Notes: generated from the letters alone by a model not told the origin. A stretch of DNA of 32,000 bases from an archaeon GW2011_AR10 (GCA_000830275.1 CP010424.1:900001-932000), one strand, 5' to 3'. Counted from the first letter of the stretch, positions 1,719 to 27,184 are shown. Numbers and translations: made by a program.

Positions 1719-2208
1719 CCTGAATGAGAGCGGGCAAACAATCCTTGTGGACCTGACTTTTGCGCTGCTGATTTTTCTGCTGGTGTTCAATTCAATTAAT
1801 GCAGCATACATTTCCTCTGTTGCAAGCGTTAAAGAAAGAAGCCGGCTGAACGAAATGCAGCTCAAGGCAACGCAGGCAATTGAAAGCCTTGTAAGCTTTG
1901 AAGGAACTCCAAGCAACTGGGAGGAACTGCCGCTGCAGCAGGTTCAAGAAATTGGTTTGGCCGATGAAAGCAAAACAATAAACGAGGCAAAGCTTAACGC
2001 ATTCAAGAACCTTTCAGCAGACTACAATTCAACCAAAGTGCTGCTAAACCTCGGCTTGTTTGATTATTTTTTCAGCCTGAAAGGAGCAGATGATGTCAAT
2101 GCAGGGCTGCCTGCAACAACAAATGCAACACAAGTGCAAGTGAAAAGAATTGTAACATACAAGGGAGAGGAAGCAATTGTTGAATTCACGTTATACTCGC
2201 TGTCATGA
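1699..2208 (+). CDS. Pilin-like hypothetical protein
   Basis: 169-aa ORF. N-terminus ..LNESG|QTILVDLTFALLIFLLVFNSI. No in-frame ATG precedes the hydrophobic helix, so the start is TTG at 1699 or 1705 (GGAG at 1692-1695). Overlaps the upstream stop at 1716-1718. Confidence 0.6.
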   Translation: MCLKTFDLNESGQTILVDLTFALLIFLLVFNSINAAYISSVASVKERSRLNEMQLKATQAIESLVSFEGTPSNWEELPLQQVQEIGLADESKTINEAKLNAFKNLSADYNSTKVLLNLGLFDYFFSLKGADDVNAGLPATTNATQVQVKRIVTYKGEEAIVEFTLYSLS

Positions 2209-8164: not shown

Positions 8165-9673
8165 ATGGCGGACAAGCTGTTAAAGGAGTACAAGGTTGAA
8201 GCAGACAAGGTTGAAGTAAGCGTTAAAATTGCTGAACGGGAAGGCGAGTTTGTCAGAAGCTATTTGCTTGACATCCCGCAGTATGGAAGAGGCACTGAAG
8301 CACTGCTTGACTCAATGAAGAGAACACTTATTGCTGACACCACCCTGAAAGCCGACAAAATGCTTGACACGCAGTTCATTGGAGAAATTAAGAAAAAGTT
8401 CAGGGAAAAATCAGAGGTCATTCTCGAGAAAACCCTTTCAGGCGTTACAGCAGAGGACAGGGGAGCATTGATTGGAATTCTCATCCAAGAAATGCTTGGC
8501 CTGGGAAAAATCGAATTTTTGCTGGCTGACGGAAACCTTGAAGAAATTGTGGTGAATTCCGCAAAGGAGCCAATATGGGTTTACCATAAGGAATTTGGAT
8601 GGCTTAAGACAAACATTTCAGTTGAAAGCGAAACTGAAACGCAGAACTATGCAAGCATTATTGCGAGAAGGGTTGGAAAACAGATAACAGTGCTTGACCC
8701 GCTGCTTGACGCGCACCTAATAACAGGGGACAGGGCAAATGCAACTTTGTTCCCGATAAGCGGGAGAGGCAACACCATTACAATCAGGCGTTTTCGAAGG
8801 GACCCTTGGACGGTTACAGACTTAATTAAAAACAAGACAACAAGCAGCGAAGTAATGGCCCTTATTTGGATGGGAATGCAGTACGAGCTAAACCTGATTT
8901 TAAGCGGCGGCACTGGCAGCGGGAAAACATCTTTCCTGAATGTTTGCCTGCCGTTCATTCAGCCAAACCACCGAATATTGTCTATTGAAGACACGAGGGA
9001 ACTTTCGCTGCCATCTTTCCTTCACTGGATTCCAATGACAACAAGGGAACCTAACCCTGAAGGGAAAGGGGCTGTGGAAATGCTGGACTTGCTGGTTAAC
9101 AGCTTGAGGATGAGGCCGGACAGAATAATTGTGGGTGAAGTTAGGAGGCAGCGGGAAGCAGAAGTTATGTTTGAGGCAATGCACACAGGGCACTCTGTTT
9201 ACACAACACTGCACGCAAACACTGCTGATGAAACAATAAGGAGGCTTGTCAACCCGCCAATTGAAGTGCCGACAACGATGCTGGAAGCAGTGCACTTGAA
9301 TGTTGTAATGTTCAGGAACAGGAAAATCGGGGTTAGAAGAGTGCTTGAAATAGCAGAATTTATTCCAGAGAAAAGAGGAGAAAGGCAGTCAATCAGGGCG
9401 AACGTGTTATACAGGTGGAAGCCGGCTGCTGACGCAATTGAAAAGTCAGCTGAAAGCATCAGGCTGTTTGATGAGCTTTCCCTTCACACTGGCCTGACAA
9501 TTGATGAAATGAGGAAAGAGCTTTACACAAAGCAAAATATTCTGGAGTGGATGGTGCAAAACAACATAAGAGAAGTTGAAAGCGTTGGAAAAATCATGGC
9601 AAAATACTACGTTGAACCAGAAGAAGTTGAAAAGGCAATTTCCAAAAACAAGGTTCCTGAGTGGTTTGGTTGA
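8165..9673 (+). CDS. Type II/IV secretion-family assembly ATPase (archaeal FlaI/PilB/TadA-like)
   Basis: 502-aa ORF. Walker A GGTGSGKT at 8906-8929, Asp box SIEDTRE, Walker B RPDRIIVGEVR, His box HTGHSVYTTLHA. Confidence 0.95.
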   Translation: MADKLLKEYKVEADKVEVSVKIAEREGEFVRSYLLDIPQYGRGTEALLDSMKRTLIADTTLKADKMLDTQFIGEIKKKFREKSEVILEKTLSGVTAEDRGALIGILIQEMLGLGKIEFLLADGNLEEIVVNSAKEPIWVYHKEFGWLKTNISVESETETQNYASIIARRVGKQITVLDPLLDAHLITGDRANATLFPISGRGNTITIRRFRRDPWTVTDLIKNKTTSSEVMALIWMGMQYELNLILSGGTGSGKTSFLNVCLPFIQPNHRILSIEDTRELSLPSFLHWIPMTTREPNPEGKGAVEMLDLLVNSLRMRPDRIIVGEVRRQREAEVMFEAMHTGHSVYTTLHANTADETIRRLVNPPIEVPTTMLEAVHLNVVMFRNRKIGVRRVLEIAEFIPEKRGERQSIRANVLYRWKPAADAIEKSAESIRLFDELSLHTGLTIDEMRKELYTKQNILEWMVQNNIREVESVGKIMAKYYVEPEEVEKAISKNKVPEWFG

Positions 9674-10560
9674 AAACTGTTACAATTCCGTTCAGCCCTT
9701 TCCCTTTCCCTGTTCTGCTCGGCATAAGCAGCCACTTGAAGGGCATTGGTTCAAAAATATCAAACATGTTCCCTTACTTGGAGCTGGAATTAAGGCAGGC
9801 TGAAATTGATTTAAGCGCTGAAGAGTACGGTTCCGTAATGTTTTTTTTGTTCGCTTTTTATTTCTCGGTTTTTTCCAGCATAGTTTACCTTTTCATGTTA
9901 AAGCTTTCGCCTCCAAATGCCCTGATTGCAGCCTTAACCTTTGGCGGGCTTTTTTCGCTGATGGTTTTCGTGCAGTTAAGCGTTTACCCTAAAATCAAGG
10001 TGAAGAGAAAAGTAAGGGACCTTGACAGGAACCTCATTTTTGCCCTTAGGACAATACTAATTGAAATAAAATCCGGCGTTTCCCTTTTTGACTCGATTGG
10101 GTTGATTGCACAAGGAGAATTTGGCTCTGTAAGCAAGGAATTCAGGAATGCATTGGAGAAAATAAATTCCGGCACCCTTGAAGAAGCAGCGCTGGAAGAA
10201 ATCGCAACATACAACCCATCTCTTTTTTTCCGCAGGACAATATGGCAGCTAGTGAACGGATTAAAGGCAGGGGCAGAGGTAAGCGTTGTGATGAAGTCGC
10301 TGGTTGAAACTCTTTCCAAGGAACAGAGAAACCAAATAAGAAAATACGGTTCCTCACTCAGGCTGCTTTCACTAATGTACATGATGCTCGGCATAATTGT
10401 GCCTGCATTGGGCCTGACTTTCCTAATAATCCTTGGTTCTTTTCCGCAGATTTCAATTGAGGAATGGATGTTCTGGGGCCTGCTGGTGTTCGTGGCAATA
10501 GGCCAGTTCATGTATCTTGGCATACTTAAGACGAACAGGCCGAGCCTGCTGGGTGGTTGA
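9661..10560 (+). CDS. FlaJ/TadB-like polytopic membrane protein (single T2SS-F-type domain)
   Basis: 299-aa ORF. GTG at 9661 overlaps the ATPase stop. The N-terminal region is conserved with paralogue 28796..29683, which supports the long start. Cytoplasmic helical domain ALRTILIEIKSGVSLFDSI..FRNALEKINSGTLEEAALEEIA..LVNGLKAGAEVSVVMKSL is flanked by TM helices. Confidence 0.85.
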   Translation: MVWLKTVTIPFSPFPFPVLLGISSHLKGIGSKISNMFPYLELELRQAEIDLSAEEYGSVMFFLFAFYFSVFSSIVYLFMLKLSPPNALIAALTFGGLFSLMVFVQLSVYPKIKVKRKVRDLDRNLIFALRTILIEIKSGVSLFDSIGLIAQGEFGSVSKEFRNALEKINSGTLEEAALEEIATYNPSLFFRRTIWQLVNGLKAGAEVSVVMKSLVETLSKEQRNQIRKYGSSLRLLSLMYMMLGIIVPALGLTFLIILGSFPQISIEEWMFWGLLVFVAIGQFMYLGILKTNRPSLLGG

Positions 10561-11562
10561 ATGGGAATTTACTCCAGAGTTTCAGGGATGCTGCCAAAAA
10601 GCATTACAAGAGCATTCAAAAGGCAGCTTGACTATTTGGGCATTGAAATAGGGGAGAAACGGGTTGTAGGGTTTCTTTTCCTTTACGGTTTCCTGCTTAG
10701 TTTGGGGCTTGCATTCAACATTTCGTTCATGTTTGGAATCAACGCCTTATTCACCTTTGCTTTCTTTTTCGGTTTGTTTGTCGGGGGAACTTATCTCTGG
10801 CTGAATGTCACTGCTGAAAGCAAGGGAAGGTTTGTTGAAACAATTCTTCCTGATGCACTGCAATTGGTTGCATCAAACGTCAAGGCAGGCCTGACAACTG
10901 AAAGGGCACTGCTTGTTTCAGCAAGGCCGGAATTCGGGCCATTAGAGAAAGAGCTTAGGAAAGCAGCGAAAAGGATTTCGGCAGGAGAAACAGTGGTTGA
11001 AGCGCTTGCAGGAATTTCTGAGAAAATAAAGTCAAAAACACTGGAGAAAACGATTTGGCTGATAAGCGAGGGCATTAGAAGCGGCGGGGAAATAGCTGAT
11101 TTGCTCATTGAACTGGCGGATGACTTGCGGGAACAGCAGGCGCTGGAAGCGGAAACAGCTGCAAACATTTCAATGTACATTCTCCTGATTTTTTTCTCGG
11201 CTGCAATTGGAGCGCCAATGCTGTTCGGGATAAGCAGCTTCATTGTGCAGATTCTTGCAGTCCAATCAGCCAGCACAGCTTCACTGGAGGTTGGCGAAGC
11301 AGCAAACATCCCGGCAAACATTCAGGGGGTTACGGCAATGATAACAGGAAAAGGCAATGCTTTGTCGCCTGATTTCATCATTTTCTTTACAATGATTTCA
11401 CTTGTCATTACTTCAATCTTTGCTTCACTCACAATTGGAGTAATAAACAACGGCTCAGAAAAATCAGGGGTGAAATTCATTCCAGCAATTCTGTTCGTTT
11501 CATTCAGCCTCTTCTTCATAATCAGGATAGTGCTCACAACACTGTTCGGATCGCTACTGTAA
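10561..11562 (+). CDS. FlaJ/TadC-like polytopic membrane protein (single T2SS-F-type domain)
   Basis: 333-aa ORF with its ATG immediately after the upstream TGA. Domain LPDALQLVASNVKAGLTTERALLVSA..LRKAAKRISAGETVVEAL..ISEGIRSGGEIADLLIELADDL is flanked by TM helices. Paralogue of 27777..28796. Confidence 0.9.
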   Translation: MGIYSRVSGMLPKSITRAFKRQLDYLGIEIGEKRVVGFLFLYGFLLSLGLAFNISFMFGINALFTFAFFFGLFVGGTYLWLNVTAESKGRFVETILPDALQLVASNVKAGLTTERALLVSARPEFGPLEKELRKAAKRISAGETVVEALAGISEKIKSKTLEKTIWLISEGIRSGGEIADLLIELADDLREQQALEAETAANISMYILLIFFSAAIGAPMLFGISSFIVQILAVQSASTASLEVGEAANIPANIQGVTAMITGKGNALSPDFIIFFTMISLVITSIFASLTIGVINNGSEKSGVKFIPAILFVSFSLFFIIRIVLTTLFGSLL

Positions 11563-16110: not shown

Positions 16111-18900
16111 ATGGCAATGAAACTGCAAAAAGTATTGCTGATGCTGGTGTTCGCTCTGCTTTTTTCAGCAACTGCTTTTGCTGCTGAAACAGTTTACTGG
16201 CTTAGGGGCAATGCTTCCGATATCGCGCTTTACTTGGACACTGAGCACAGAATGATTTCAACTGCACCAGGCTCTGGCGCAACTGAAGCTGATTTCACCA
16301 CCACAACTGTTGCCGGAACAAATGATTGGGGGGTATGGCACTCTGACTCATTGGCGGAAAACTTCACCATAACAGGCACTGTTTATGTGTGGTTTTCCTA
16401 TCTTAATCTGAGCGGTGGAAGCGGCCAATTCCGCTGGACACTATGGGATTATGATGAGGAAAGCGGCTCAATAACGTACATTGCGCAGTCAGCGTGGGCT
16501 GACTTTCCCAGCGCAGCGCAGATTGAAACATTTAAGACTCTTGACAACAATTACACTGTTGCTGCAGGCAACAGGTTGGGCCTCAGGCTGGAGTATAATT
16601 CGGCAAGCAGCGGCAGCACTGCCTCGCTGAAGGTTGACTCTGCCAGCGCAGGCAGCAGCGTAACATGGAATGCTTCAACAGGCGGCACTTACACTGCCAG
16701 CAATGTGAGCAGGGCAGCAGCAATTCTCTTCAACCCCCAAACAGTAAGCATTTCTTGCAGTAGCGATTCTGACTGCGATGACAGCAACAGCTTGACTGGG
16801 GATGTATGCATTAATTCCGGCACGGCACAGTCTTTTTGCTCTAACCAGGGCTGCTATGTTGCATGCTACAGCAGCAGTGACTGCGATGACGGGGTTGCGG
16901 AAACAGTTGACACCTGCTTGGGTGCTGGAACCTGCTCTTCGAGGTGCCAGAACCTTGAGGAATTTTCAGCGCTGTGCAGCAGCAACTCTGACTGCGATGA
17001 TGGTAACCCGTTAACAATTGACTCATGCAATAACCCGGGAACAGCTTCTGCGGGGTGCTCAAACATTTCATGCACTCCAACGTGCAGCAGCAGCTCTGAC
17101 TGCGATGACAGCGACGCAAATACAACTGATGTTTGCGCTGGGGCAGGAAGGTGCACTGCAACCTGCTCTAATTTGGCAAGCTGCGGTAACGGCGTGTTAG
17201 ATTCAGGCGAAACCCCCTGCAATTGCCCAACGGATGCGGGCACATGCGAAGGCATTGTTGGAACCTGTTTGGAGAATGCATGCATTGGAACATCATGCGA
17301 GGTAACAATTGCTCTCGGCTGCTGTGGAAACAATTTCTGCGAGTTCAAGGAAGATTACAGCAACTGCGCGGTTGACTGCAAGCCGAAAGAAATTTCCATT
17401 GAGGTGACAGGAATAAGCGAGGAAAGCAGCTTTCTCCGCGGGGAAGAAGTTAAATTGGTTGCAGCGGTTGAAGCAGATGGATTGGAGGTAAGGGAAGCAA
17501 AGGTTTTTGCGAAAGGTTTTTTTGGGGAAATAGTTTTGTTCAACGACGGCAAGCACAGCGATGGGACAAGGAACGATAACTTGTATGGGAACAGTTTTTT
17601 TGTTGGTGAAACATTAAAGGAAGGCGCATACCCTGTCACAATTGAGGCAAGCTTTGCCGGCAGCACAGGAAAGACTGTTAAGAACCTTAATTTTAAGCCT
17701 GCACTTGAGGTTTCAATTGCAACTGACAGGGAAGCTTACGCTTTAGGCGACATAATCAGGGTTTCAGGCACTATAACAAAGAAAGGCAAAGGAATTGCAA
17801 GGGAAATTGACCTAAACATTTCAGTTGAAGGAAAGCTTGTAACTGAAGCTGATTTGAATTCCAAGGCTGATGGGAGCTATTCTTTTGAATACCATTCAAG
17901 CAATTTTGAGGATTCGGGAAGCTGGGAGATAAGCATTCTAACATCTGACGAGCAAGGCAACATTGGAGCTAAATCAAAGAATGTGGTGGTTGCAGAACAA
18001 GAAATAACTGCCTCGCTTTCACTTGAACTTGAGAGAGAAATCCTTGCAGCTTACGCAAGGAATGAAACCATTGCAATTGAAGTTAGGGTAAAGAACCTTG
18101 AAAACAAATTAGTGGAACAGGCATCAGTTCAGGCACTGATGCCTGATGGGGAGATTGTTTCATTCGCGGAAACAAGCACTGGCCTCTACGGGGCGGCCTA
18201 TTTGATTAAGCCTAACGTTCCACTCGGAGAGCAGGAAATAAAAGTCGTGGCCTCAAAGTTTGACGGCAACAATGTTATGGGCGGGAGCCTTGCATTCATC
18301 TTTGAAGTAAAAGCAATAAGCCTTATTGTTGAAGTGCTGGAGCCAACCAATAAAAGCGTTCAGGTTGGAGAGGACCTAAAAATAAGGGTTGCAGTTTCCT
18401 ATCCTGACAATGAGCCTGTTGTTGGTGCAGATTTCAATGCACTTGTGAACGGAAAAAAAGTTGAATTGAAGGCAGTTGAGAAAGGGGTCTATGAGGGAAC
18501 GCACTTCATTGACGAGTCAGAAGCACAGGGCATAAAAGCAGCAATTAGTTTTGATGACTCATTCGGGAACAAGGGCACAGCAGGGTTTGAAGTTGATGTA
18601 AGGGGCACATCCATTGTTTTTTACTTGAAAAAATATACTGTAAGCATTGCGCTTGCATTTCTTGCTGCAGCGCTTGCAGCAACCCTCATTGCACTCCAAG
18701 TAATGAACAGAAACAGGTATGCGGGCTTCAAGAGAAAGGAAAAGGAACTAATTGAAAAGCTGAAGAACATTCAGGTGCAGTATTTCAGGGAGGGTAGCCT
18801 CGACAGGAAAAATTACGACCAGTTAATGCAAAAATATGAGGCAGGCCTTGAAGAAGCCCGGAAAACCATTGCGCAGATGGAGAAGGAAAAGAAAAAGTGA
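16111..18900 (+). CDS. Large type I membrane surface protein (paralogue 1): Sec signal, YWLRG N-domain, four Cys-rich DCDD modules plus a CGNG module, Ig-like repeats, TM helix, SHOCT-like cytoplasmic tail
   Basis: 929-aa ORF. Signal MKLQKVLLMLVFALLFSATAFA|AE. Cys-rich region at 16756-17379, with tctgactgcgatga recurring about every 108-111 bp. Repeated ~90-100-aa beta-sandwich-like units. TM helix VSIALAFLAAALAATLIALQV (~18640-18705). Tail ..LIEKLKNIQVQYFREGSLDRKNYDQLMQKYEAGL. Confidence 0.9.
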   Translation: MAMKLQKVLLMLVFALLFSATAFAAETVYWLRGNASDIALYLDTEHRMISTAPGSGATEADFTTTTVAGTNDWGVWHSDSLAENFTITGTVYVWFSYLNLSGGSGQFRWTLWDYDEESGSITYIAQSAWADFPSAAQIETFKTLDNNYTVAAGNRLGLRLEYNSASSGSTASLKVDSASAGSSVTWNASTGGTYTASNVSRAAAILFNPQTVSISCSSDSDCDDSNSLTGDVCINSGTAQSFCSNQGCYVACYSSSDCDDGVAETVDTCLGAGTCSSRCQNLEEFSALCSSNSDCDDGNPLTIDSCNNPGTASAGCSNISCTPTCSSSSDCDDSDANTTDVCAGAGRCTATCSNLASCGNGVLDSGETPCNCPTDAGTCEGIVGTCLENACIGTSCEVTIALGCCGNNFCEFKEDYSNCAVDCKPKEISIEVTGISEESSFLRGEEVKLVAAVEADGLEVREAKVFAKGFFGEIVLFNDGKHSDGTRNDNLYGNSFFVGETLKEGAYPVTIEASFAGSTGKTVKNLNFKPALEVSIATDREAYALGDIIRVSGTITKKGKGIAREIDLNISVEGKLVTEADLNSKADGSYSFEYHSSNFEDSGSWEISILTSDEQGNIGAKSKNVVVAEQEITASLSLELEREILAAYARNETIAIEVRVKNLENKLVEQASVQALMPDGEIVSFAETSTGLYGAAYLIKPNVPLGEQEIKVVASKFDGNNVMGGSLAFIFEVKAISLIVEVLEPTNKSVQVGEDLKIRVAVSYPDNEPVVGADFNALVNGKKVELKAVEKGVYEGTHFIDESEAQGIKAAISFDDSFGNKGTAGFEVDVRGTSIVFYLKKYTVSIALAFLAAALAATLIALQVMNRNRYAGFKRKEKELIEKLKNIQVQYFREGSLDRKNYDQLMQKYEAGLEEARKTIAQMEKEKKK

Positions 18901-18904
18901 AAGA

Positions 18905-21430
18905 ATGAACAGAAGGATTTTATGTTGCGCAGTTTTTTTGCTGTTGGTTTCCTTGCTTGGAAACGTAAGCGCGACAAGTGCAATTTACTGGCTTAGGGGA
19001 AGTGACGTTGCTGCAAGGTTTGAGGGAACTGAAGCATACTTCATGTCTGGAACCCCGCCTAATGCATCCTCAACTGGAACAATAGTTGCTGCTGAAGTTT
19101 CAGGCGGAACACACGAGTTTGGAAGATGGTACTCTGTTGCTTTCCCGCAGGACTCAATTGTTTCAAACGAGGTTTTTTTTTGGGTTAACAAGCTTAGCCA
19201 AGGCAACGGCAACGCAAGGTTTCGCTTCACTTTGTATGAGTTTGTTGCGGACAGCCGGGAAAGCAGGGAAATTGTGCAGTCTGAATGGCTTGATTTTCCT
19301 GCAGGGGAAAAAGAATTCAAAGCAGAAATACTGGAACCATATGCTATCAGCAAGGGAAACAGGCTGAAGCTTGCGCTTGATTACAATGCTGTGGAAGCAG
19401 GCGGCGAAATAAGGCTTGTGCTGGATGAGTCAACAGGTTTTGGTGTTTCAGTGTGGAATGTTTCAAACAATCAGACTTACAGTGCTTCAGGTGTTGCCGG
19501 CACTGCAGCATTGCTTGTCAACTCCTGCACTGAAAGCGCAATTGCTTGCACAACTGATGCTTACTGTGATGATGGTTTGGCTTTAACCCTTGACAGGTGT
19601 GAGAACCCTGGAAGCTGTGCTGCTGAATGCGTTGCAGAAACATGCACGCCGGAGTGCACTTCAAATGCGCAGTGCGATGACAAAAGCTATTTAACAATTG
19701 ATGTTTGCGAGAACTCAGGAAAATGCGATGCTGCATGCAGCAACAATGAATGCAGTGTTTCATGCAGCTCTGACACCGAGTGCAGTGACGGTTTGCCAAG
19801 CACTTTGGACCAATGCATTAATGCAGGAACCTGTTTTGCTTTCTGCGAAAACAGGGTTTGCGTTGGAGAGGAATGTGATTCGGTTGCGAGAAACGAGTGC
19901 GGCAATGGCTTGTGCGAATTCAATGAGGCGTGCAGCGCAGACTGCAATGAAACAACAATTGAGCTTTTGGGGGTTAAGGAAGGAGAGTATTTTCTAAGAG
20001 GCGAGCAGATAATTATTGAGGCAAAGCCTGTTGGCTTTACTAAAGTGGTTGAGAGAGTTAATGCAGAGGGTTTTTTTGGGGAGCTTGAACTGAAGGACAA
20101 TGGAAGAAGCCCTGATAAGAAGGCCTCTGACGGAATTTACACTGCAGCTGTTGAAATCGCCAGCGAAACAATGCAAGGGGTGCACGCTGTCACGTTAACC
20201 TCTGAAAGCGCCTCTGAGAAGGCTGAGCTGGTGAAATACTATGTTGTGTGGCCTTTTCTTGAGGCAACCATTGATGTGCCGCTGCAGCTTTCAAGGGGGG
20301 GAGTGCTGCGAGTTTCAGGCACGCTAAACAAGAGGGGCGTTCCACTGGATGAACAGGTTTCCTTAAGAATTTCTTCTGCAGGAAAAACAATTGAGAGCTC
20401 TTCCGTTGAAGTAAACCAGTACGGCTGGTTTTTTTTCTCTTATCGGAGCAGCCAGCTAGACCCAATAGGAAAATGGGGTGTATCGGTTAGAGCTCTTGAC
20501 AAGGAAGGCAATGAAGCATTAATTGAGAAAGAGGTCATAGTTGTTTCCGGCCAAGCAAGCTCTGAAATAACAGTTGAGGTACTGGAACCAGCTGCAGGAG
20601 AAATTGAGCGTGGAGAAGAACTCATTGCAAGGGTAAAGGTTTTAGAGGAAGGGGAAGCAGTTGAAGGGGCAATTGTGAAAGCTTTAACCCCGCTTCGTGA
20701 AACCATTGCACTGAAAGAAGTGGCTGCAGGGGTTTACGAGGGAAAAATCTTTCTTTCTTTCCGGGAACCATTGGGAGAGCAGCGGCTCATTTTTATTGTT
20801 TCTGTTTCAGGTGAAAATGAAGCAAGGCAGGCTGAATCACAGCAGGAAATTGTTGTGCAGCCATCCAAATTGCTGGTTGGAGTTGATGTTGAAGAGGAGT
20901 CAATGAAAGCAGGGCAAAACGGAATTGCGAGAATCAGCATTAATTATGCAAACGGAGAGCCTGTTGAAAATGCAGTTGTTTCAGTTGAAGGGAACGGAAA
21001 AGAATTTGAGGTAAGGAGAGAAGGCCATGGATTTGTTGCCTCAAGGCAGCTGGGGGCAGATGAGAGAGGCACGATAAGCCTTGTCGTTGAAGCAATGGAC
21101 TCTTTTGGCAACGAAGGAAAAAAGGAGGTTGAAGCAGAGGTCGGGGCAGCACCGCTATTTGTTTTTTCTTGGGGAGCATTTCTTTTAGTGCTGGCAGTTT
21201 TGGCAGGAATTGTGCTGGCAATTTGGGCGAGCAGGTTTGTCTTTTTGAGTTTTAAGGGCAGGGAAGAGTTGGTTGAAAAAGAGCAGCTCTTGCTGAAAGA
21301 AATTTCTGAACTCCAGAAACGCTATTTCCAAAAACACTTGATGAAAAGCAAGGAATACTACGACTTAATGAATAAATACGAAAACGAGTTAAATAGTATA
21401 AGACAACAACTTAAAAGAGAGAAAAAATGA
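18905..21430 (+). CDS. Large type I membrane surface protein (paralogue 2)
   Basis: ATG at 18905, 5 nt after the upstream TGA; the track start 18836 overlaps the previous gene. Signal MNRRILCCAVFLLLVSLLGNVSA|TS, then AIYWLRG. Cys-rich region at 19526-19945. Ig-like repeats. TM helix ~21155-21230. Tail ..LLKEISELQKRYFQKHLMKSKEYYDLMNKYENEL. Confidence 0.9.
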   Translation: MNRRILCCAVFLLLVSLLGNVSATSAIYWLRGSDVAARFEGTEAYFMSGTPPNASSTGTIVAAEVSGGTHEFGRWYSVAFPQDSIVSNEVFFWVNKLSQGNGNARFRFTLYEFVADSRESREIVQSEWLDFPAGEKEFKAEILEPYAISKGNRLKLALDYNAVEAGGEIRLVLDESTGFGVSVWNVSNNQTYSASGVAGTAALLVNSCTESAIACTTDAYCDDGLALTLDRCENPGSCAAECVAETCTPECTSNAQCDDKSYLTIDVCENSGKCDAACSNNECSVSCSSDTECSDGLPSTLDQCINAGTCFAFCENRVCVGEECDSVARNECGNGLCEFNEACSADCNETTIELLGVKEGEYFLRGEQIIIEAKPVGFTKVVERVNAEGFFGELELKDNGRSPDKKASDGIYTAAVEIASETMQGVHAVTLTSESASEKAELVKYYVVWPFLEATIDVPLQLSRGGVLRVSGTLNKRGVPLDEQVSLRISSAGKTIESSSVEVNQYGWFFFSYRSSQLDPIGKWGVSVRALDKEGNEALIEKEVIVVSGQASSEITVEVLEPAAGEIERGEELIARVKVLEEGEAVEGAIVKALTPLRETIALKEVAAGVYEGKIFLSFREPLGEQRLIFIVSVSGENEARQAESQQEIVVQPSKLLVGVDVEEESMKAGQNGIARISINYANGEPVENAVVSVEGNGKEFEVRREGHGFVASRQLGADERGTISLVVEAMDSFGNEGKKEVEAEVGAAPLFVFSWGAFLLVLAVLAGIVLAIWASRFVFLSFKGREELVEKEQLLLKEISELQKRYFQKHLMKSKEYYDLMNKYENELNSIRQQLKREKK

Positions 21431-21589
21431 AAAAGTTTTGGTCAACTAGCCAATCAAGAATTAATAAGGGGTTGAACGCAGTGAAACCCCTTGATATACG
21501 CGCTGTCAACTGGCGCACTCAGTTGAAAGAGAGAAAAAATGAATCATGAAAATATTTATGAGGGTTCAAAGAACCCCCGAGGTATTCAG

Positions 21590-22825
21590 ATGTCAACTGG
21601 CTGTGGCAGTTGGAGGAATGCTTTCTTGCTTCTGGCTGTTCTGCTGCTGGCATCAGATGCCATTGCGCTTACTATTCTAACCGACAAGCTGTCTTATGTG
21701 AAAGGAGATGTCATAGCGATAAGCGGTGCATGCAGTGCGGGAAACCAGAACCTTGTCATCGGTTTAAATGGGGAGAAAAAAATTTTTGAGGAAGACATTG
21801 AGTGCTCTGAGGAAGAGGAATTCAGCTTTGATTATCAGTCAAGCTTTCTTGACCCTGAAGGAAACTGGGAGCTCAGGCTTTCAACTCCTGAGGAGTCAGC
21901 CAAAATAAATGTTGTAGTGGAAAACAAGAGGGAGGCCGGGTTTTATTTCATTAAAGTGCTTAACCCAACAATAGGCAAGTACAGCAGGGCAGAAAAACTG
22001 GATTTCAGCGTGGAAGTAACTGATGCAGGAACACTTGTAGCTGATGCAAGGGTAGTGCTTTGGGGGGTGAAAGGGGAAAGGATTGAGTTCAGGAATTCCG
22101 GCAGCGGAGTATACAATGTTGAATACACTGTGCCTGTTGATGCGCCTCTTGGAAGCTGGAAAGTGCTTTTGCTTGCTGAAACCGTGCGCGGGCAGGAGCG
22201 AATAGGGGGCAGAAACAACGAATTGGAAATGGTAATAGAAAAGGCACCGATTTCAATTGATGTGCTGGAGCCAAAAACAACCACCTTTGAGCTGGGAACA
22301 AGGATTCCTGTAAGGATTAATGCAACATACTTTAATGGAAGCGGGCTGCCGGAGGAAAGCATTGCAACAGCCAGGGTGGATGGGAAAGAGATAACGCTTT
22401 CAAGGATTTCTTCAAGCGAGTTTGCTGGCATGATTGAAATTGAGCAGAGTGGAAGTCTTGAGGTGGAGATAACAGTTGATGACCAGTCTGAAAACATTAC
22501 AACCAAAACATTGAACCTTGTTGCAGGGTGCTCGGTTACGTGCCTTATAACAAACTATGGCTTATACATAATTGCTGTTGTTTTGGTGGGCCTTGTTGCC
22601 TTCAAGCTGTTTGTTGGAAAGGTAAGCTATGGCTCAGAGCTCAGCAAACTGGAGAAGGAAAAGCAGAAAAACCTTGAATTAATTGTTTCACTGCAAAAAG
22701 AATACTTCAGCAAGGGAGTGATGCCTGCCAACTCATACAAGAAGAATCTGGCAGAATACAAGGCAAGGCTTGCTGAACTTGAAGAAAAAATAAGAGAGCT
22801 TAGGAAAAAGCAGGAAAACGAGTAA
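21590..22825 (+). CDS. Shorter type I membrane surface protein (paralogue 3; lacks the YWLRG and Cys-rich parts)
   Basis: ATG at 21590 sits 6 nt after GAGGT; ATG 21539 is an alternative. Signal MSTGCGSWRNAFLLLAVLLLASDAIA. Ig-like repeats. TM helix ~22558-22615. Tail ..LELIVSLQKEYFSKGVMPANSYKKNLAEYKARL. Confidence 0.85.
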   Translation: MSTGCGSWRNAFLLLAVLLLASDAIALTILTDKLSYVKGDVIAISGACSAGNQNLVIGLNGEKKIFEEDIECSEEEEFSFDYQSSFLDPEGNWELRLSTPEESAKINVVVENKREAGFYFIKVLNPTIGKYSRAEKLDFSVEVTDAGTLVADARVVLWGVKGERIEFRNSGSGVYNVEYTVPVDAPLGSWKVLLLAETVRGQERIGGRNNELEMVIEKAPISIDVLEPKTTTFELGTRIPVRINATYFNGSGLPEESIATARVDGKEITLSRISSSEFAGMIEIEQSGSLEVEITVDDQSENITTKTLNLVAGCSVTCLITNYGLYIIAVVLVGLVAFKLFVGKVSYGSELSKLEKEKQKNLELIVSLQKEYFSKGVMPANSYKKNLAEYKARLAELEEKIRELRKKQENE

Positions 22826-22831
22826 TGGCAC

Positions 22832-22846
22832 AAAATTTTTATATTT
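22832..22846 (+). promoter_or_regulatory. TATA-like box upstream of the 792-aa gene
   Basis: aaaatttttatattt lies 7 nt after the stop of the preceding gene and about 155 nt before ATG 23001. Confidence 0.3.
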
Positions 22847-23000
22847 CAAAAACAAACTCTATACGACGTCCTACCGCACTGAAGTGCGAGGTTTTCCAAT
22901 GGACGTCAATTTACAGTCAACGGAAAATGAAGCCGAGCAAAAACCCCGCCATAAATGGCGAGGCTTCATTTTGGGTTGGTGAATTGCTTTTGGTGCCTTG

Positions 23001-25376
23001 ATGGATGAAAAAGAAAAGCTGATAATGTCTTCAATCGGCAAGCTGCTGCAAGAAAAAGCTGAGGACGACGAAATAATTGATAGCCTGACAGGGCTTGGCT
23101 TAAGCGAGGAGGAAGCAAAACAGTACCTTGCGGAAGCAAAGAAGCGCATTGAGTCAGGGCAAGGAGAATATGCCTCAGAGGATGATTCGCTTGAAAAAAT
23201 AATCAGTGATTCCTCAAAAGAGCAAATGCAAGAAATTGGTGAAGGGCCAGAGGAAAGAGCAGGAGCTTTAGGGGGAACAGACCAAGGCGGTTTTGAAACT
23301 ACGCCTGAAGCAAAACCCATTCAAAGTGAAAAAACTGGTTTACTTGAAAGAATTCTTGGAAAAAAACCCGCAGCAAAAGCCGGAGAAAAAGAAAAAGCAG
23401 GAAAAGAAAAGGTTAAAGCGCCTGAAAAAGAAACCTTGGAAAAGCCTGGCTCTTTTTGGGAGGCAAAGCCAGGAAAATATTGGGGGGAAACAGAAAAGGC
23501 TTCCAAAAAAAAATCAGGGTTATTTGACTCGCTCAAAAAAATGGCCGGAAAAAAGAAGCAAGTTGGTGGTTTGGAGCCTGAGCTTTCAGGAAAGCGGGAG
23601 CCAGTAAAGGAGATAAGAGTTAAGTCTGCTCTTGAGGAAACGCTTGAAGGAGGCAAAGAAACAGAAGAAGCTGCAGGCAAATATGAGGAAACAGAAGAAA
23701 AGCCCAAACAGCAGAAGCCTGTTGAAGAAGATGGAACAATGCAGGAAAGCGTTTCTTCGGTTGGAGAAGAGCTCGGTGCAGGCCTTCTGGAACTGGAAGA
23801 GAAAACAAAAACAGGCAGGGAAAAACGCACACCCTCAAAACAGGGGAAGGAAAAAAAGGAAACCGGAAAAACACTGAGAGCACAAGAGCAAAAAGCAAGG
23901 GAAACAGAGAAGCCTGCCGCAGTTCAGGTTAGGCCAAGGCCAAGGGGAAAGCTGACTCTGCTCATTATCCCAAACAGGGAGTACTCGAGGAGCATCGGCG
24001 TTATTGCAAAGTATTTGTCTGACAATTACTCCAAAGTCGCATACATAAGCTTAAACGAGTTGTATGATACGCTTCAAAGCAATCTTAAGGCAAACAAAGT
24101 TGATGTTGACCGAATGATTTTTGTTGACGCAATAACTAGGACCGCGCAAACCAGGATACAGAAAACAAGCAACTGCACTTTTGTTACCTCCCCGAATGAC
24201 TTGGTGGAATTAAGCCTTGCAATTACTGATGTGCTGAACAAAGGGAATGTTGATGCACTGCTTTTTGATTCGCTTTCAACGCTGCTGATTTACGAGAAAG
24301 AAAAAACTGCAACCAAATTTATCCATTCACTTATCGGAAAAATAAAGGCTGTTGGTGGTGACTCGGTTTTAACTGCACTTGAAGGGGACGCAAACAGAGA
24401 AGCAATCAGGAACCTGCAAATGTTTGTGGATGAAGTTCTTACAATGAGCCAGTTCCAGATAAACAACCTGCAGCAGGGCTACGATGAGCTTGATGTCAAG
24501 CAAGAAGAGCCAGCAGAGCCCATAGGAAAGGCATTGATGGGAGCACTTAAGGAGCTTGAAATTTCAAGGCCTGCAGTGAAAGCTGTTGCGAAAAGAGGGA
24601 ACGAAAAAGAAATCATTGGCCAGCTTGGCGAGCTGAAAAAACAGTTAAGCGGCATTGAAGCACGGCCTTCGCATGAAAATGAATTCAAAAAGTTTGAGGA
24701 GCAGCTGAAAAAACTTGAAGCAAGGCCAAAGCCAGTTGAAGCTGCGCCAGCGATACAGAAAGAGCTAAGGGAGCTGAAAAAGCAGCTGAAAAAAATTCAG
24801 GGAAGACCAAAAGTAAAAGTTATTGATTCGAGGAAAGCAGTCAGGGAGGCCCTCAAAAAAATTGAGGAACGGCTGGCAAAAATTAAGCCAAAACAGCAGA
24901 AGCAACAGCCAGTGAACCAGCTTAAGAAAGAGTTGAGAAAGCTTGCTGAAAAAATTCGCGGGATTTCAGGAAAGGGGGAGAAAGAGAAAACATCAAAGAT
25001 TATAGAGAAGGAATGGGGAAAGCTGGAGAAAAGGTTCAAAAAAATCGAAAAACAGCCTGGTTTCCACAAAGAACTTAAGGGGCTGTCTGAAAAGATAGGA
25101 AAAATCAAGGCAAAACCGTTGCCTAAAAAGTACCTCAAAAAAATTGAGGAGCGATTTGACCGAATGGAGAAAAAAATTGGAAAAGACGATAAAATGCACC
25201 GCGCGGAAATGAAAAAACAGCAGAGAATCCAGGAGACGAAAGACAAAGCGGAAAAGCAGGTTAAGGCCCTTGAAAGAAAGCTCTCACTGCTTAACAAAAG
25301 CTATTCTCTGGGGGTAATAAGCGAGGGAGCTTATCTAAAAGACAAATCGCGCATTGAAAAGCTGCTGAAAAAATAG
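23001..25376 (+). CDS. Degenerate KaiC/RecA-like protein (no Walker A) with shared N-terminal helical domain, E/K-rich linker, K-rich ..RP repeats and SHOCT-like C-terminus
   Basis: ATG at 23001 (MDEKEKLIM..). The N-domain ..IIDSLTGLGLSEEEAKQYLAEAKK parallels ..VVGSLKDIGLSEEEAHSLLEKAKG of 25922..27100. The RecA-like core KLTLLIIPNREYSRSIG...DALLFDSLSTLL...SVLTALEG has PNREYSRS where the paralogue has GGAGTGKT (23951-23999). C-terminus LERKLSLLNKSYSLGVISEGAYLKDKSRIEKLLKK. Confidence 0.85.
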   Translation: MDEKEKLIMSSIGKLLQEKAEDDEIIDSLTGLGLSEEEAKQYLAEAKKRIESGQGEYASEDDSLEKIISDSSKEQMQEIGEGPEERAGALGGTDQGGFETTPEAKPIQSEKTGLLERILGKKPAAKAGEKEKAGKEKVKAPEKETLEKPGSFWEAKPGKYWGETEKASKKKSGLFDSLKKMAGKKKQVGGLEPELSGKREPVKEIRVKSALEETLEGGKETEEAAGKYEETEEKPKQQKPVEEDGTMQESVSSVGEELGAGLLELEEKTKTGREKRTPSKQGKEKKETGKTLRAQEQKARETEKPAAVQVRPRPRGKLTLLIIPNREYSRSIGVIAKYLSDNYSKVAYISLNELYDTLQSNLKANKVDVDRMIFVDAITRTAQTRIQKTSNCTFVTSPNDLVELSLAITDVLNKGNVDALLFDSLSTLLIYEKEKTATKFIHSLIGKIKAVGGDSVLTALEGDANREAIRNLQMFVDEVLTMSQFQINNLQQGYDELDVKQEEPAEPIGKALMGALKELEISRPAVKAVAKRGNEKEIIGQLGELKKQLSGIEARPSHENEFKKFEEQLKKLEARPKPVEAAPAIQKELRELKKQLKKIQGRPKVKVIDSRKAVREALKKIEERLAKIKPKQQKQQPVNQLKKELRKLAEKIRGISGKGEKEKTSKIIEKEWGKLEKRFKKIEKQPGFHKELKGLSEKIGKIKAKPLPKKYLKKIEERFDRMEKKIGKDDKMHRAEMKKQQRIQETKDKAEKQVKALERKLSLLNKSYSLGVISEGAYLKDKSRIEKLLKK

Positions 25377-25446: not shown

Positions 25447-25854
25447 ATGAAGAAAAAAAGGAAAGCAACAGGCAAAAGCAAGGCAAAGAGAGCAGGCAGA
25501 GGAAATAGAAAAGCCCCGAGAAAAGCCAAAAGGAAAACTGTTAAAGTGGCTTCTGCAAGGGAAAGCGTGAAGAAGCATGGCCTGCTTGAAAACGCTTTAA
25601 GGGAAATAGAGAAAGAGCTTGACTCTCTGCGCGGACAAAAGCTTGACACTGAAAAAGAACTAGGTGGGCTTGCATCCAGTATTTCCTACACACAAAACAA
25701 GGAGCTGGAGCTTAAAAACACGGTACAGAAGCTTGTGGCAAAAGAGGAGCAGCTGAACCTCAAAAGGGAAAGGCTACAAGAGCAGATCCAAAAAGTAAAG
25801 GAAAAGATTACAAAGATAAGCCAGCTTGAAGCTGAAATGGAAGAAATTTCTTAA
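25447..25854 (+). CDS. Basic-tailed coiled-coil protein (hypothetical)
   Basis: 135-aa ORF. N-terminus MKKKRKATGKSKAKRAGRGNRKAPRKAKRK, followed by heptad-like E/K/L-rich sequence to the end. Confidence 0.6.
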   Translation: MKKKRKATGKSKAKRAGRGNRKAPRKAKRKTVKVASARESVKKHGLLENALREIEKELDSLRGQKLDTEKELGGLASSISYTQNKELELKNTVQKLVAKEEQLNLKRERLQEQIQKVKEKITKISQLEAEMEEIS

Positions 25855-25921: not shown

Positions 25922-27100
25922 TTATTCTTCTTCCCTGAATATTTCTTGGTTGATGTAAATCTCAAAGCCGTGGTCAGTAATAGTGTATGGGGTGATTTTT
26001 CTGACATGGGAGGAACTCCTCAACTTCAGGATTTCAAGCGCTCTCTGCCTTGTATTGTGAATCTGAATATTGTAGAAAACCACAACCCCGTCTGCCAGAA
26101 ACTCTTCAATGCCTGAACGAGAGTATGTTCTTGGGCTCTGCTCCGTTTCACCGAAAACAAGGTTGCATGAATTGAACCTCTCCAGGGTTTCAAAAAGGTG
26201 GCGCAAGTACTGCCTGTAACCCTGCTCGTTTTCCATGAACGCAATGGAAAGAGCGGAAAGTGAATCAACGACAACCCTGTCTGGCTTGAAAGGCAAGTCA
26301 AACTGGAAAGGCAAGTCGAATTCCTCAAACTCGATGTAGAGTCCGCCCCTCTCCTTGGTTAACATTGCTTCAACTGCCCTTGCAATTGTTAGGGGATCAA
26401 TTTTAATGATTGCAAGGTTTTGCTCTTCCTCCATTTTTTCTAAATCCCAGTTAAAGTTTTCCATCATGTTCTCTTTTATCTTTGAAGCTGTTTCCTCCAA
26501 GGTAATGTACAGGCCTTTTTCTCCGTTCAATGCGCCATTGTAAATGCTCTGCATTCCAAAAGTTGTTTTGCCTGTTCCAGCTCCACCAGAAAGAAGTATT
26601 GTGTCGCCGCGCTTGAGACCGCTTCTTCCAATCAACTTGTCAAAGTCTGAAACCCTCACCGGAAGAACCTCGCGGAAAACTACTTTGCCAGACCTTTTTT
26701 GGAGCATTGCGGATTCCTTAATGCGCCAATCTCCACTGCTCTTATTTGTTGCTTCAAACGAGCCCCTGCCGGATGTTGAAGCCCTTTCAGCACCAAGAAT
26801 GCCGCTAATCATTGCCTGGGAGGAAGCTGGGCTGGCATCTCTTCTGCCAAAGAATTCATCATAAGAAGAACTCCAAAACTCGTTGCCTGAACTGCTTGGT
26901 TGCTCTTTTCGGTGTTCAGCTGAAGGTTTTTTGCTTGACCCTTCAGGAGTGGAAGAGCCCTTGGCCTTTTCGAGCAGGGAATGCGCTTCCTCCTCGCTTA
27001 AGCCAATGTCCTTCAAACTACCCACAACATCGTTATCGGAGAGTTTGTCTGCAACCATTCTTTTGGCTGCGTCAAGCAGCCTCTGCTTTTTTGCGTCCAT
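25922..27100 (-). CDS. KaiC/RecA-superfamily ATPase (FlaH/ArlH-like) with N-terminal helical domain and Ser-rich linker
   Basis: ATG at 27100 (MDAKKQRLL..); the track start is GTG 27109. Walker A GGAGTGKTT at 26561-26587 (minus strand). Walker B-like RVVVDSLSAL. C-terminal ..ALEILKLRSSSHVRKITPYTITDHGFEI is typical of KaiC-like single-domain ATPases. Confidence 0.93.
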   Translation of the reverse strand: MDAKKQRLLDAAKRMVADKLSDNDVVGSLKDIGLSEEEAHSLLEKAKGSSTPEGSSKKPSAEHRKEQPSSSGNEFWSSSYDEFFGRRDASPASSQAMISGILGAERASTSGRGSFEATNKSSGDWRIKESAMLQKRSGKVVFREVLPVRVSDFDKLIGRSGLKRGDTILLSGGAGTGKTTFGMQSIYNGALNGEKGLYITLEETASKIKENMMENFNWDLEKMEEEQNLAIIKIDPLTIARAVEAMLTKERGGLYIEFEEFDLPFQFDLPFKPDRVVVDSLSALSIAFMENEQGYRQYLRHLFETLERFNSCNLVFGETEQSPRTYSRSGIEEFLADGVVVFYNIQIHNTRQRALEILKLRSSSHVRKITPYTITDHGFEIYINQEIFREEE

Positions 27101-27184
27101 GAACCCCACAAATAGTAGGTTTTAGAGTTTAAAAACGTTTCAGAAAACAGAAAAAGGAGAAAAGCAAAATGAACTAATGATTCG

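Follow-up and report, generated by a model that had tools for sequence, protein, structure and literature searches.

What connects the surface proteins of an archaeon to the KaiC-like proteins encoded beside them? The question is raised by a 32,000-nucleotide stretch of the genome of archaeon GW2011_AR10 (CP010424.1:900001-932000; hereafter the window, with positions counted from its first letter), in which an operon for three adhesins, A, B and C, precedes the gene for K792, a KaiC-like protein of 792 amino acids (aa) that lacks a Walker A motif, and the gene for a true KaiC-like ATPase. The source is a DPANN archaeon of the Iainarchaeia/Diapherotrites group, and the nearest homologues of K792 come from metagenome-assembled genomes of that group. 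According to the original prediction, made from the window alone, the cytoplasmic tails of the three adhesins and the C-terminus of K792 share one motif resembling the SHOCT domain, through which the surface proteins would be linked physically to the cytoplasmic protein. Our analysis indicates that the link between adhesins and KaiC-type proteins is probably real and that the proposed SHOCT-motif interface probably is not. The argument draws on the following features of the window (TM, transmembrane; ORF, open reading frame; HMM, hidden Markov model).

16111..18900, + strand: adhesin A (A929), 929 aa; ORF with signal peptide, Cys-rich repeats, MG2/Ig-like domains, C-terminal TM helix and cytoplasmic tail
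18640..18702, + strand: TM helix of adhesin A, aa 844-864; hydropathy maximum
18703..18897, + strand: cytoplasmic tail module of adhesin A; tail HMM 85.6-92.0 bits; originally predicted motif at 18766-18849
18836..21430, + strand: adhesin B (B864), ORF of 864 aa; choice_anch_X match; orthologues ~820 aa
21155..21217, + strand: TM helix of adhesin B; hydropathy maximum
21218..21427, + strand: cytoplasmic tail module of adhesin B; tail HMM 78.1-97.6 bits; motif at 21308-21391, with H for the usual G
21539..22825, + strand: adhesin C (C428), 428 aa; tandem Ig/MG-like ectodomain, TM helix and tail; orthologues P0026-P0032
22562..22624, + strand: TM helix of adhesin C; hydropathy maximum; in the AlphaFold2 model it runs on as a single helix, aa 333-392
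22625..22822, + strand: cytoplasmic tail module of adhesin C; tail HMM; motif at 22688-22771
22998..25376, + strand: K792; DUF7504, Walker-A-less KaiC/ArlH-like protein with long coiled coil; orthologues P0001-P0025
22998..23141, + strand: small N-terminal helical domain of K792; BLASTP against the neighbouring true KaiC
23949..24467, + strand: KaiC-like (RecA-fold) pseudo-ATPase domain of K792, aa 318-490, without Walker A; Pfam, AlphaFold2, Foldseek
25239..25373, + strand: SHOCT/GvpG-like C-terminal two-helix unit of K792, aa 748-792; conservation, Pfam, AlphaFold2; motif at 25287-25373
25922..27109, - strand: true KaiC-like ATPase (KaiC395), 395 aa; Pfam KaiC 165 bits; Walker A GGAGTGKT; N-terminal domain as in K792

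Each adhesin has a signal peptide, one C-terminal TM helix, placed by hydropathy, and after it a tail of 65-70 aa rich in K, R and E, which agrees with the basic stretch and helical motif described for it at the outset. All four motif peptides, that of K792 included, are present, and the positions first given for them were approximate but correct. Adhesin B has H where the single pattern drawn through the four requires G. The three adhesin tails are clearly related to one another (78-98 bits with the tail HMM), and an HMM built from them and their orthologues in a related locus (L001) recovers 55 non-redundant tails from related loci, with E between 1e-4 and 1e-28. All 55 lie in C-terminal regions, directly after a TM helix wherever the upstream sequence is shown. 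The motif is thus conserved among orthologues, in these 55 adhesin tails as well as, for the end of K792, in 20 or more orthologous proteins. The consensus of the tail family reads L..L..E......IK.LQ..YF..G.[ML]....Y......Y...L.E[IL], where Q, Y, F and Y are nearly invariant. Gly is only the majority residue of its column; in the wider set no residue reaches 50% there and many tails have A, K, S or R, so that the conserved inter-helix Gly of SHOCT is not a feature of the adhesin tails.

How common is this tail? At E <= 1e-3, an exhaustive search with the tail profile returns 716 representative clusters, of which 132 also pass E <= 1e-10. Most members are large to giant (of 146 representatives, half have at least 1000 aa, the longest ~3800 aa), with ectodomains of Laminin_G, beta-helix or Ig type. 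The 312 tail modules, which occur in one to three copies per protein, include 150 that follow a TM helix at a median distance of 9 aa and 131 that come second in a tandem pair. Neither Pfam nor NCBIfam holds a model that covers the module. By these sequence criteria, the tail is a domain that is widespread among large to giant surface proteins and has not been catalogued. Note that the 92-aa C428 tail alone found no matches in a word-index homology search; full-length C428 and the exhaustive profile search did find relatives. We also considered DUF7022 (10 of 119 tails, best E = 0.004) and Strep_SA_rep as the parent family, and neither match was reproduced on longer segments holding two modules. 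Sequence searches of the PDB with the profiles of both the adhesin tails and the K792-type tails were non-informative, returning designed coiled coils or an insignificant MIT-domain match (2v6y, E = 0.07). Smaller tail-bearing proteins cluster beside the giants, and in two loci (L054 1-4893 and L058 1-7999) tail-bearing giants adjoin still larger genes, which encode 7420 and 8659 aa.

In the AlphaFold2 model of the C428 tail, helix 1 (aa 333-392) extends from the TM segment to YFSK and, after a break at GVMPA (aa 393-397), helix 2 follows (aa 398-427). A heptad pattern can be read from the sequence of helix 2 in adhesin C, Y..L..Y...L..L...I..L, with spacing 4,3,4,3,4,3. The helices of the adhesin tails and of the K792-type tails are amphipathic (hydrophobic moment, muH, 0.28-0.42), mostly net positive and of mean hydrophobicity -0.2 to -0.5, values from which the hydrophobic-moment analysis did not separate membrane binding from protein binding.

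Do tails and KaiC-type proteins keep company elsewhere? The gene order phosphoglucomutase (PGM), A, B, C, K (the gene for K792 and its orthologues), small coiled-coil protein and, on the opposite strand, KaiC recurs in distant Iainarchaeia, whose K proteins are ~30-45% identical. The association also holds in both directions of search. For giants found only via the tail profile, six of seven informative contigs (P0040, P0045, P0055, P0098, P0104 and P0132) hold a KaiC-like or DUF7504 gene at a distance of 0-280 nt, and in loci found from K as the seed, in Aenigmatarchaeota, Woesearchaeota and Hadesarchaea (L029, L034, L036, L038, L048, L050), tail genes lie 0-143 nt from a KaiC-like gene. This conserved, reciprocal neighbourhood strongly suggests a functional link between the adhesins and the KaiC-type proteins. 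The K-like proteins that adjoin tail genes are mostly short DUF7504 proteins of 170-280 aa, with neither coiled coil nor SHOCT-like end, both in Iainarchaeia that retain the A/B/C adhesins (L019, L020, L022, L023, L024) and in other loci (L054, L061, L064), other DPANN archaea included. Since the SHOCT-like end is missing in most lineages that have the adjacency, the conserved partner of the tails would be the KaiC/pseudo-KaiC module and not the C-terminal motif of K792, which is unlikely to be a conserved interface. What survives of the proposed connection is therefore the association of the genes; the shared motif as its conserved basis does not.

K792 itself was correctly recognised as a KaiC-like protein without Walker A. 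It passes the DUF7504 model (PF24336) with 39.8 bits against a cut-off of 27 (E = 8.7e-10, aa 376-482), under which its orthologues are annotated, and stays below the cut-off of Pfam KaiC (PF06745; 24.0 against 26.6 bits). Its predicted RecA-like fold is of the KaiC/FlaH type (predicted local distance difference test score, pLDDT, ~90), with PH0284 (2dr3, E = 1.8e-6), FlaH (4yds) and KaiC CI among the Foldseek matches. The Walker A motif GxxxxGK[ST] is absent from K792 and from every one of the 85 K-type family members, and present in all 67 neighbouring KaiC-like proteins. K792 has in addition a 300-aa coiled coil and the SHOCT-like end, and it shares with KaiC395 a small helical domain at the N-terminus (22998-23141 on the + strand and 26960-27103 on the - strand; ...IxSLxxxGLSEEEAxxxLxxAK), for which there is no Pfam match: aa 1-48 of K792 align with aa 3-50 of the true KaiC at 35% identity over 48 aa (BLASTP, E = 1e-9). 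Both KaiC-type proteins may use this domain as a shared handle for docking or heteromerisation. Many Iainarchaeia have a second pair shortly downstream, in which a KaiC-like ATPase, ~240 aa long, is accompanied by a Walker-A-less K-like/DUF7090 protein of ~200 aa (L001 14372-15697; likewise L006, L008, L013-L015, L019, L020, L022, L024 and L026); the window lacks this pair there and continues with a pilus locus.

How might a tail and a pair of KaiC-type proteins work together? KaiC-like ATPases were reportedly proposed by Makarova and colleagues in 2017 to be signalling hubs of archaea. The analysis shows the domains described above, their conservation and where they lie relative to the TM helices; it also shows that Walker A was lost and that the genes are adjacent. 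On this basis we suggest the following scheme. Three co-translated type-I surface proteins of a conserved operon would each present a membrane-proximal, two-helix cytoplasmic tail of ~55 aa. Helix 1 would continue directly and rigidly from the TM helix and end at Q..YF; a break of five residues (G-hydrophobic-hydrophobic-S/D/P-x) would follow, and then a heptad-patterned helix 2 that starts at the conserved Tyr. The tails would be docking sites at which the adhesins recruit the KaiC/pseudo-KaiC pair on their cytoplasmic side. There the ATPase activity or phosphorylation state of the KaiC hub could be coupled to how the surface proteins cluster or to their conformation, or contact could be reported inward. 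The type-IV-pilus machineries encoded nearby may be partners as well. The coiled coil and SHOCT-like end of K792 would be a lineage-specific accessory, lending reach or helping to position the protein at the membrane or the tail bundle, and its SHOCT-like unit may be distantly related to the tail module of the adhesins. We put the probability that the tails dock the KaiC/pseudo-KaiC module at about 0.55.

Several points weigh against this docking scheme. Both the binding and the direction of signalling are drawn from gene context and sequence. The count of neighbours comprises only seven informative contigs, several short contigs being uninformative, and one giant (P0064) has no KaiC-type neighbour on its informative contig. 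KaiC-family genes are numerous in archaea, and a background adjacency of a few percent is our assumption. ParA/MinD-like ATPases adjoin some tail-bearing genes in two loci (L054 7007-7747 and L056 5560-6372), so that the partner of the tails could be a different or an additional one. Finally, the model of the C428 tail is of moderate confidence (pLDDT 60-84), and we read from it the limits of the helices, not the packing of a hairpin.

Where does this leave the resemblance to SHOCT? It holds, below threshold, for the C-terminus of K792 and fails for the adhesin tails. The K792 motif occupies aa 758-792 of 792, a position and length that agree with SHOCT, and its consensus, LEKKLxLLNxxYxxGxISxxAYxKDKxxIExLLKK with invariant G772, is kept in the 20 or more orthologues (27-43% overall identity), 13 of which align without gaps in the core. 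AlphaFold2 predicts (pLDDT ~90) a long helix that ends at aa 770 and a second one (aa 776-791) after a break at LGVIS (aa 771-775), that is, two amphipathic helices (muH 0.36-0.42) with an invariant Gly in the loop, as in SHOCT. Set against the Pfam gathering cut-offs of 27 bits for SHOCT (PF09851) and 30.6 bits for GvpG (PF05120), the four peptides of the window yield no SHOCT match at E <= 10. The K-tail orthologues score 16.4-25.6 bits with SHOCT, all below the cut-off (best E = 9.5e-6), the highest value belonging to an orthologue with two copies, and 4 of 13 match the model over its full 28 positions (best 22.1 bits). All 13 match the C-terminal part of GvpG (profile positions ~24-66 of 67; 13-24 bits, best E = 3.7e-5). 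Adhesin-type tails match neither family at E <= 10 (0 of 43 and 0 of 119). Because the best orthologue scores just under the SHOCT cut-off, we regard the K792 C-terminus as a SHOCT/GvpG-like two-helix unit, as judged by profile comparison, that lies below the SHOCT threshold. Several K orthologues (P0014-P0025; L001 9989-12310) have two such units in tandem, ...AYKKGIISKNKY... then ...AYDSGVISKESY....

Do the adhesin tails resemble the K tail at all, and if they do, might they bind it? As first conceived, the two are one SHOCT-type oligomerisation motif whose direct binding tethers K792; the other extreme is that K/E/L-rich helices look alike by chance or composition and the four proteins are merely neighbours. 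Several results speak for some relationship. In hhalign profile comparisons with 13 K tails, sets of 43 and 119 tails reach P = 0.0017 and 0.0011, respectively (probability 16-20%, 25 columns), both alignments of the tails superposing YF..G.M....Y on SY..G.IS...Y. None of 200 column-shuffled K tails reaches the real score (shuffle mean 8.8, maximum 14.4), and among 139 sliding windows along the K family the three that hold the C-terminal unit rank first, at 18.2-18.6, all other K/E-rich helices reaching at most 14.2. When the K-tail HMM was run against 150 tail-bearing proteins, 78 of its 92 weak matches lay within tail modules, and 42 of these shared a single register. The core [YF]xxGx[ILMV]xxxx[YF] is fairly specific, 31 of its 81 non-redundant matches in 413,000 ORF residues being adhesin tails and 20 K tails, and AlphaFold2 predicts a helix, a five-residue break and a helix in the C428 tail and the K792 end alike. 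There is also a bridging sequence, a 135-aa TM protein (L060 3208-3615, - strand) whose tail LQSQFKQGIISKDAYESL scores 30.5 bits with the adhesin-tail HMM and 18.5 bits with the K-tail HMM in the same register. Its core is the sole, atypical adhesin-type case with SHOCT as top Pfam match (E = 0.055), and the protein is possibly, to judge from these scores, an evolutionary intermediate between the two modules. In P0086 (aa 400-458) a TM helix and two tail modules are followed by a separate SHOCT-like stretch (LERKVEEGKITRARFVKEKVKL); the two types of unit can thus share one polypeptide.

Against this, an HMM of the three window tails misses the K792 C-terminus, ranking K792 last of 25 window proteins, as does an ungapped BLOSUM profile of the three tails run over all window proteins, in part artefactually since its 34-aa window runs beyond the end of K792. 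A reversed K tail scores 18.7, level with the real one, so that the signal may be a near-palindromic helical pattern and is not proof of homology. The mutual similarity claimed at the outset thus appears weak but specific, and only modestly beyond chance. Other results, too, speak against direct binding of tail to tail: most K-like proteins beside tail genes have no K tail, none of 162 adhesin tails matches SHOCT or GvpG, every SHOCT or GvpG score falls below the curated cut-offs, and oligomerisation, the function that the prediction ascribed to SHOCT, was tested by the describers of the domain and not found (Eberhardt et al. 2013, PMC3581485). We therefore consider this model unlikely. Chance likeness, which would account for the missed HMM, the reversed control, the low hhalign probability and the many spurious coiled-coil matches in our Pfam and PDB searches, is still more improbable: both motifs are conserved domains and not low-complexity sequence, the register is consistent, a bridging sequence exists, the window control within the K family favours the K tail, and conserved, reciprocal synteny already largely refutes the idea that the genes are mere neighbours. 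Two further explanations accept the tail as a real domain and deny it a KaiC-type partner. Imagine that adhesin tails and K tail were independent amphipathic two-helix units lying at the inner leaflet of the membrane, binding neither each other nor KaiC-like proteins, and that adjacency reflected co-regulation only. The amphipathic, mostly net positive helices and the start of the modules ~9 aa after the TM helix would fit, and SHOCT-like domains have been predicted to anchor diverse domains at the membrane inner leaflet (PMC11237479). However, the low mean hydrophobicity is more typical of soluble coiled coils or hairpins than of interfacial helices, a TM-anchored protein needs no further membrane anchor, and the strict conservation of Q, YF and Y across very different ectodomains suggests a protein partner, which leads us to doubt this explanation about as much as direct tail-to-tail binding. 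Alternatively, the tails might bundle the surface proteins themselves, as an A-B-C heterotrimer or through the tandem modules of a giant, by coiled-coil or hairpin packing, the KaiC-type genes being regulatory neighbours. In keeping with this, A, B and C each form an orthologous group of their own, their genes keep a fixed order and overlap at the stop and start codons, helix 2 has clean heptads, proteins often carry two or three modules, and smaller tail-bearing proteins occur beside giants. As bundling leaves the near-constant adjacency of KaiC/DUF7504 unexplained, we think it improbable as the whole explanation; it is compatible with docking of the KaiC/pseudo-KaiC module and does not exclude it.

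The adhesins deserve some further description. The MG2 match of adhesin A is weak (Pfam), and its orthologues, at the same position in related loci, measure ~960-1020 aa. The annotated start of adhesin B (18836) overlaps the end of the A929 tail; an ATG at 18905, which opens a signal peptide (MNRRILCC...) 5 nt past the A929 stop, is probably the true start. In orthologous loci the adhesin genes overlap by 4 nt (stop/start codons), which suggests translational coupling. The ectodomains of A929 and B864 contain (at 16750-17400 and 19500-19950) four to five Cys-rich repeats of ~35 aa with the pattern C.S.SDCDD....T.D.C...G.....C. The AlphaFold2 model of adhesin C (pLDDT 83) has complement MG domains and the SiiE adhesin as Foldseek matches. 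In B864, aa 417-440 pass the NCBIfam model choice_anch_X ('choice-of-anchor X'; 29.3 bits against a cut-off of 25), a match that prompted us to consider whether TM helix and basic tail form an archaeosortase-type sorting signal. We rejected this because the tail is a conserved helical domain of 55-70 aa that is often in tandem and is also internal in giant proteins.

The adhesin operon lies between two type-IV-pilus-like gene sets, downstream of the PGM gene, and the window encodes another surface protein, of 944 aa with LVIVD/VWA/CARDB domains, at 2177-5011. The remaining features are these.

8165-11562, + strand: pilus-like set 1; T2SSE ATPase and two T2SSF genes (platform protein split)
25447..25854, + strand: 135-aa protein with very basic N-terminus and coiled coil; ORF; weak SMC-like coiled-coil matches only; a 143-aa counterpart at the same position in L001-L003
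27185-31560, - strand: pilus-like set 2; class III signal pilin, two T2SSF genes (split platform protein) and T2SSE

Could docking of a KaiC-type pair be a more general device? DPANN archaea, which live attached to other cells, have genes for very large surface proteins. On a broader reading, the tail would couple hundreds of families of large to giant host-contact proteins across the membrane to a docked KaiC/DUF7504 pair, whose hub, driven by ATP or phosphorylation, would control or sense adhesion, the tail itself possibly being a far-diverged, membrane-tethered relative of SHOCT. We offer this tentatively and rate its chances at less than even; if it is true, archaea would have, in these adhesin tails, a counterpart of inside-out/outside-in signalling. 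At the least, a conserved tail on unrelated ectodomains, consistently beside KaiC-type genes, constitutes a testable candidate for a surface-to-cytoplasm connection in DPANN archaea. It also points to a function for one branch of the KaiC-like proteins, which are abundant in archaea and poorly understood, gives a SHOCT-like two-helix unit a defined context, at the membrane beside TM tails, and makes the tail profile a practical marker for DPANN surface proteins and their regulators in metagenomes.

How does all this compare with systems already described? SHOCT and GvpG are catalogued families, and KaiC-family ATPases are known to be associated with type IV pilus loci in archaea (Makarova et al. 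2016, PMC4858521). We found nothing relevant in the literature on DUF7504, DUF7022, DUF7090, DUF7125 or DPANN cytoplasmic tails, and no description of the tail domain family, of its placement right after the TM helix of DPANN surface proteins or of its reciprocal adjacency to KaiC/DUF7504 genes. The last 45 aa of K792 are like SHOCT in being C-terminal and in having ~30 aa with two amphipathic helices, a short loop and an invariant Gly, and the full 28-position profile aligns with orthologous tails in the expected register; they differ in their sub-cut-off scores (best 25.6), with K792 of the window itself unmatched. SHOCT also has a strongly conserved Glu in helix 2 (PMC3581485). The K tails appear to lack a counterpart where that helix begins: the residues after GxIS vary (E/K/N/R, then G/E/D/S), and the invariant Glu residues lie elsewhere, at E759 and E787. 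The adhesin module recalls SHOCT in its G-hydrophobic-hydrophobic-S/T...aromatic spacing and its helix-break-helix prediction, but it is longer (~55 aa), has a long helix 1 continuous with the TM helix, and possesses an invariant Q and YF that are not in SHOCT. As to GvpG, its C-terminal half aligns to all 13 K-tail orthologues, although the scores stay below 30.6, only the helical C-terminal part is matched and the window is without gas-vesicle genes; this part of GvpG, to go by its sequence pattern, we take to be SHOCT-like itself.

The locus as a whole is reminiscent of KaiC/ArlH/FlaH pilus-archaellum systems. A KaiC-family ATPase and a degenerate paralogue, K792, adjoin type-IV-pilus-like loci, and a role in regulation via protein-protein contacts would be expected. 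It differs in the proposed partner, here a conserved cytoplasmic tail on TM surface proteins, in a K family that is uniformly without Walker A, and in the 300-aa coiled coil and SHOCT-like end that K792 adds. With integrin-type tails there is no homology and, we infer, a functional analogy only, which would consist in single-pass adhesins with diverse ectodomains and a short common cytoplasmic tail that would recruit one partner.

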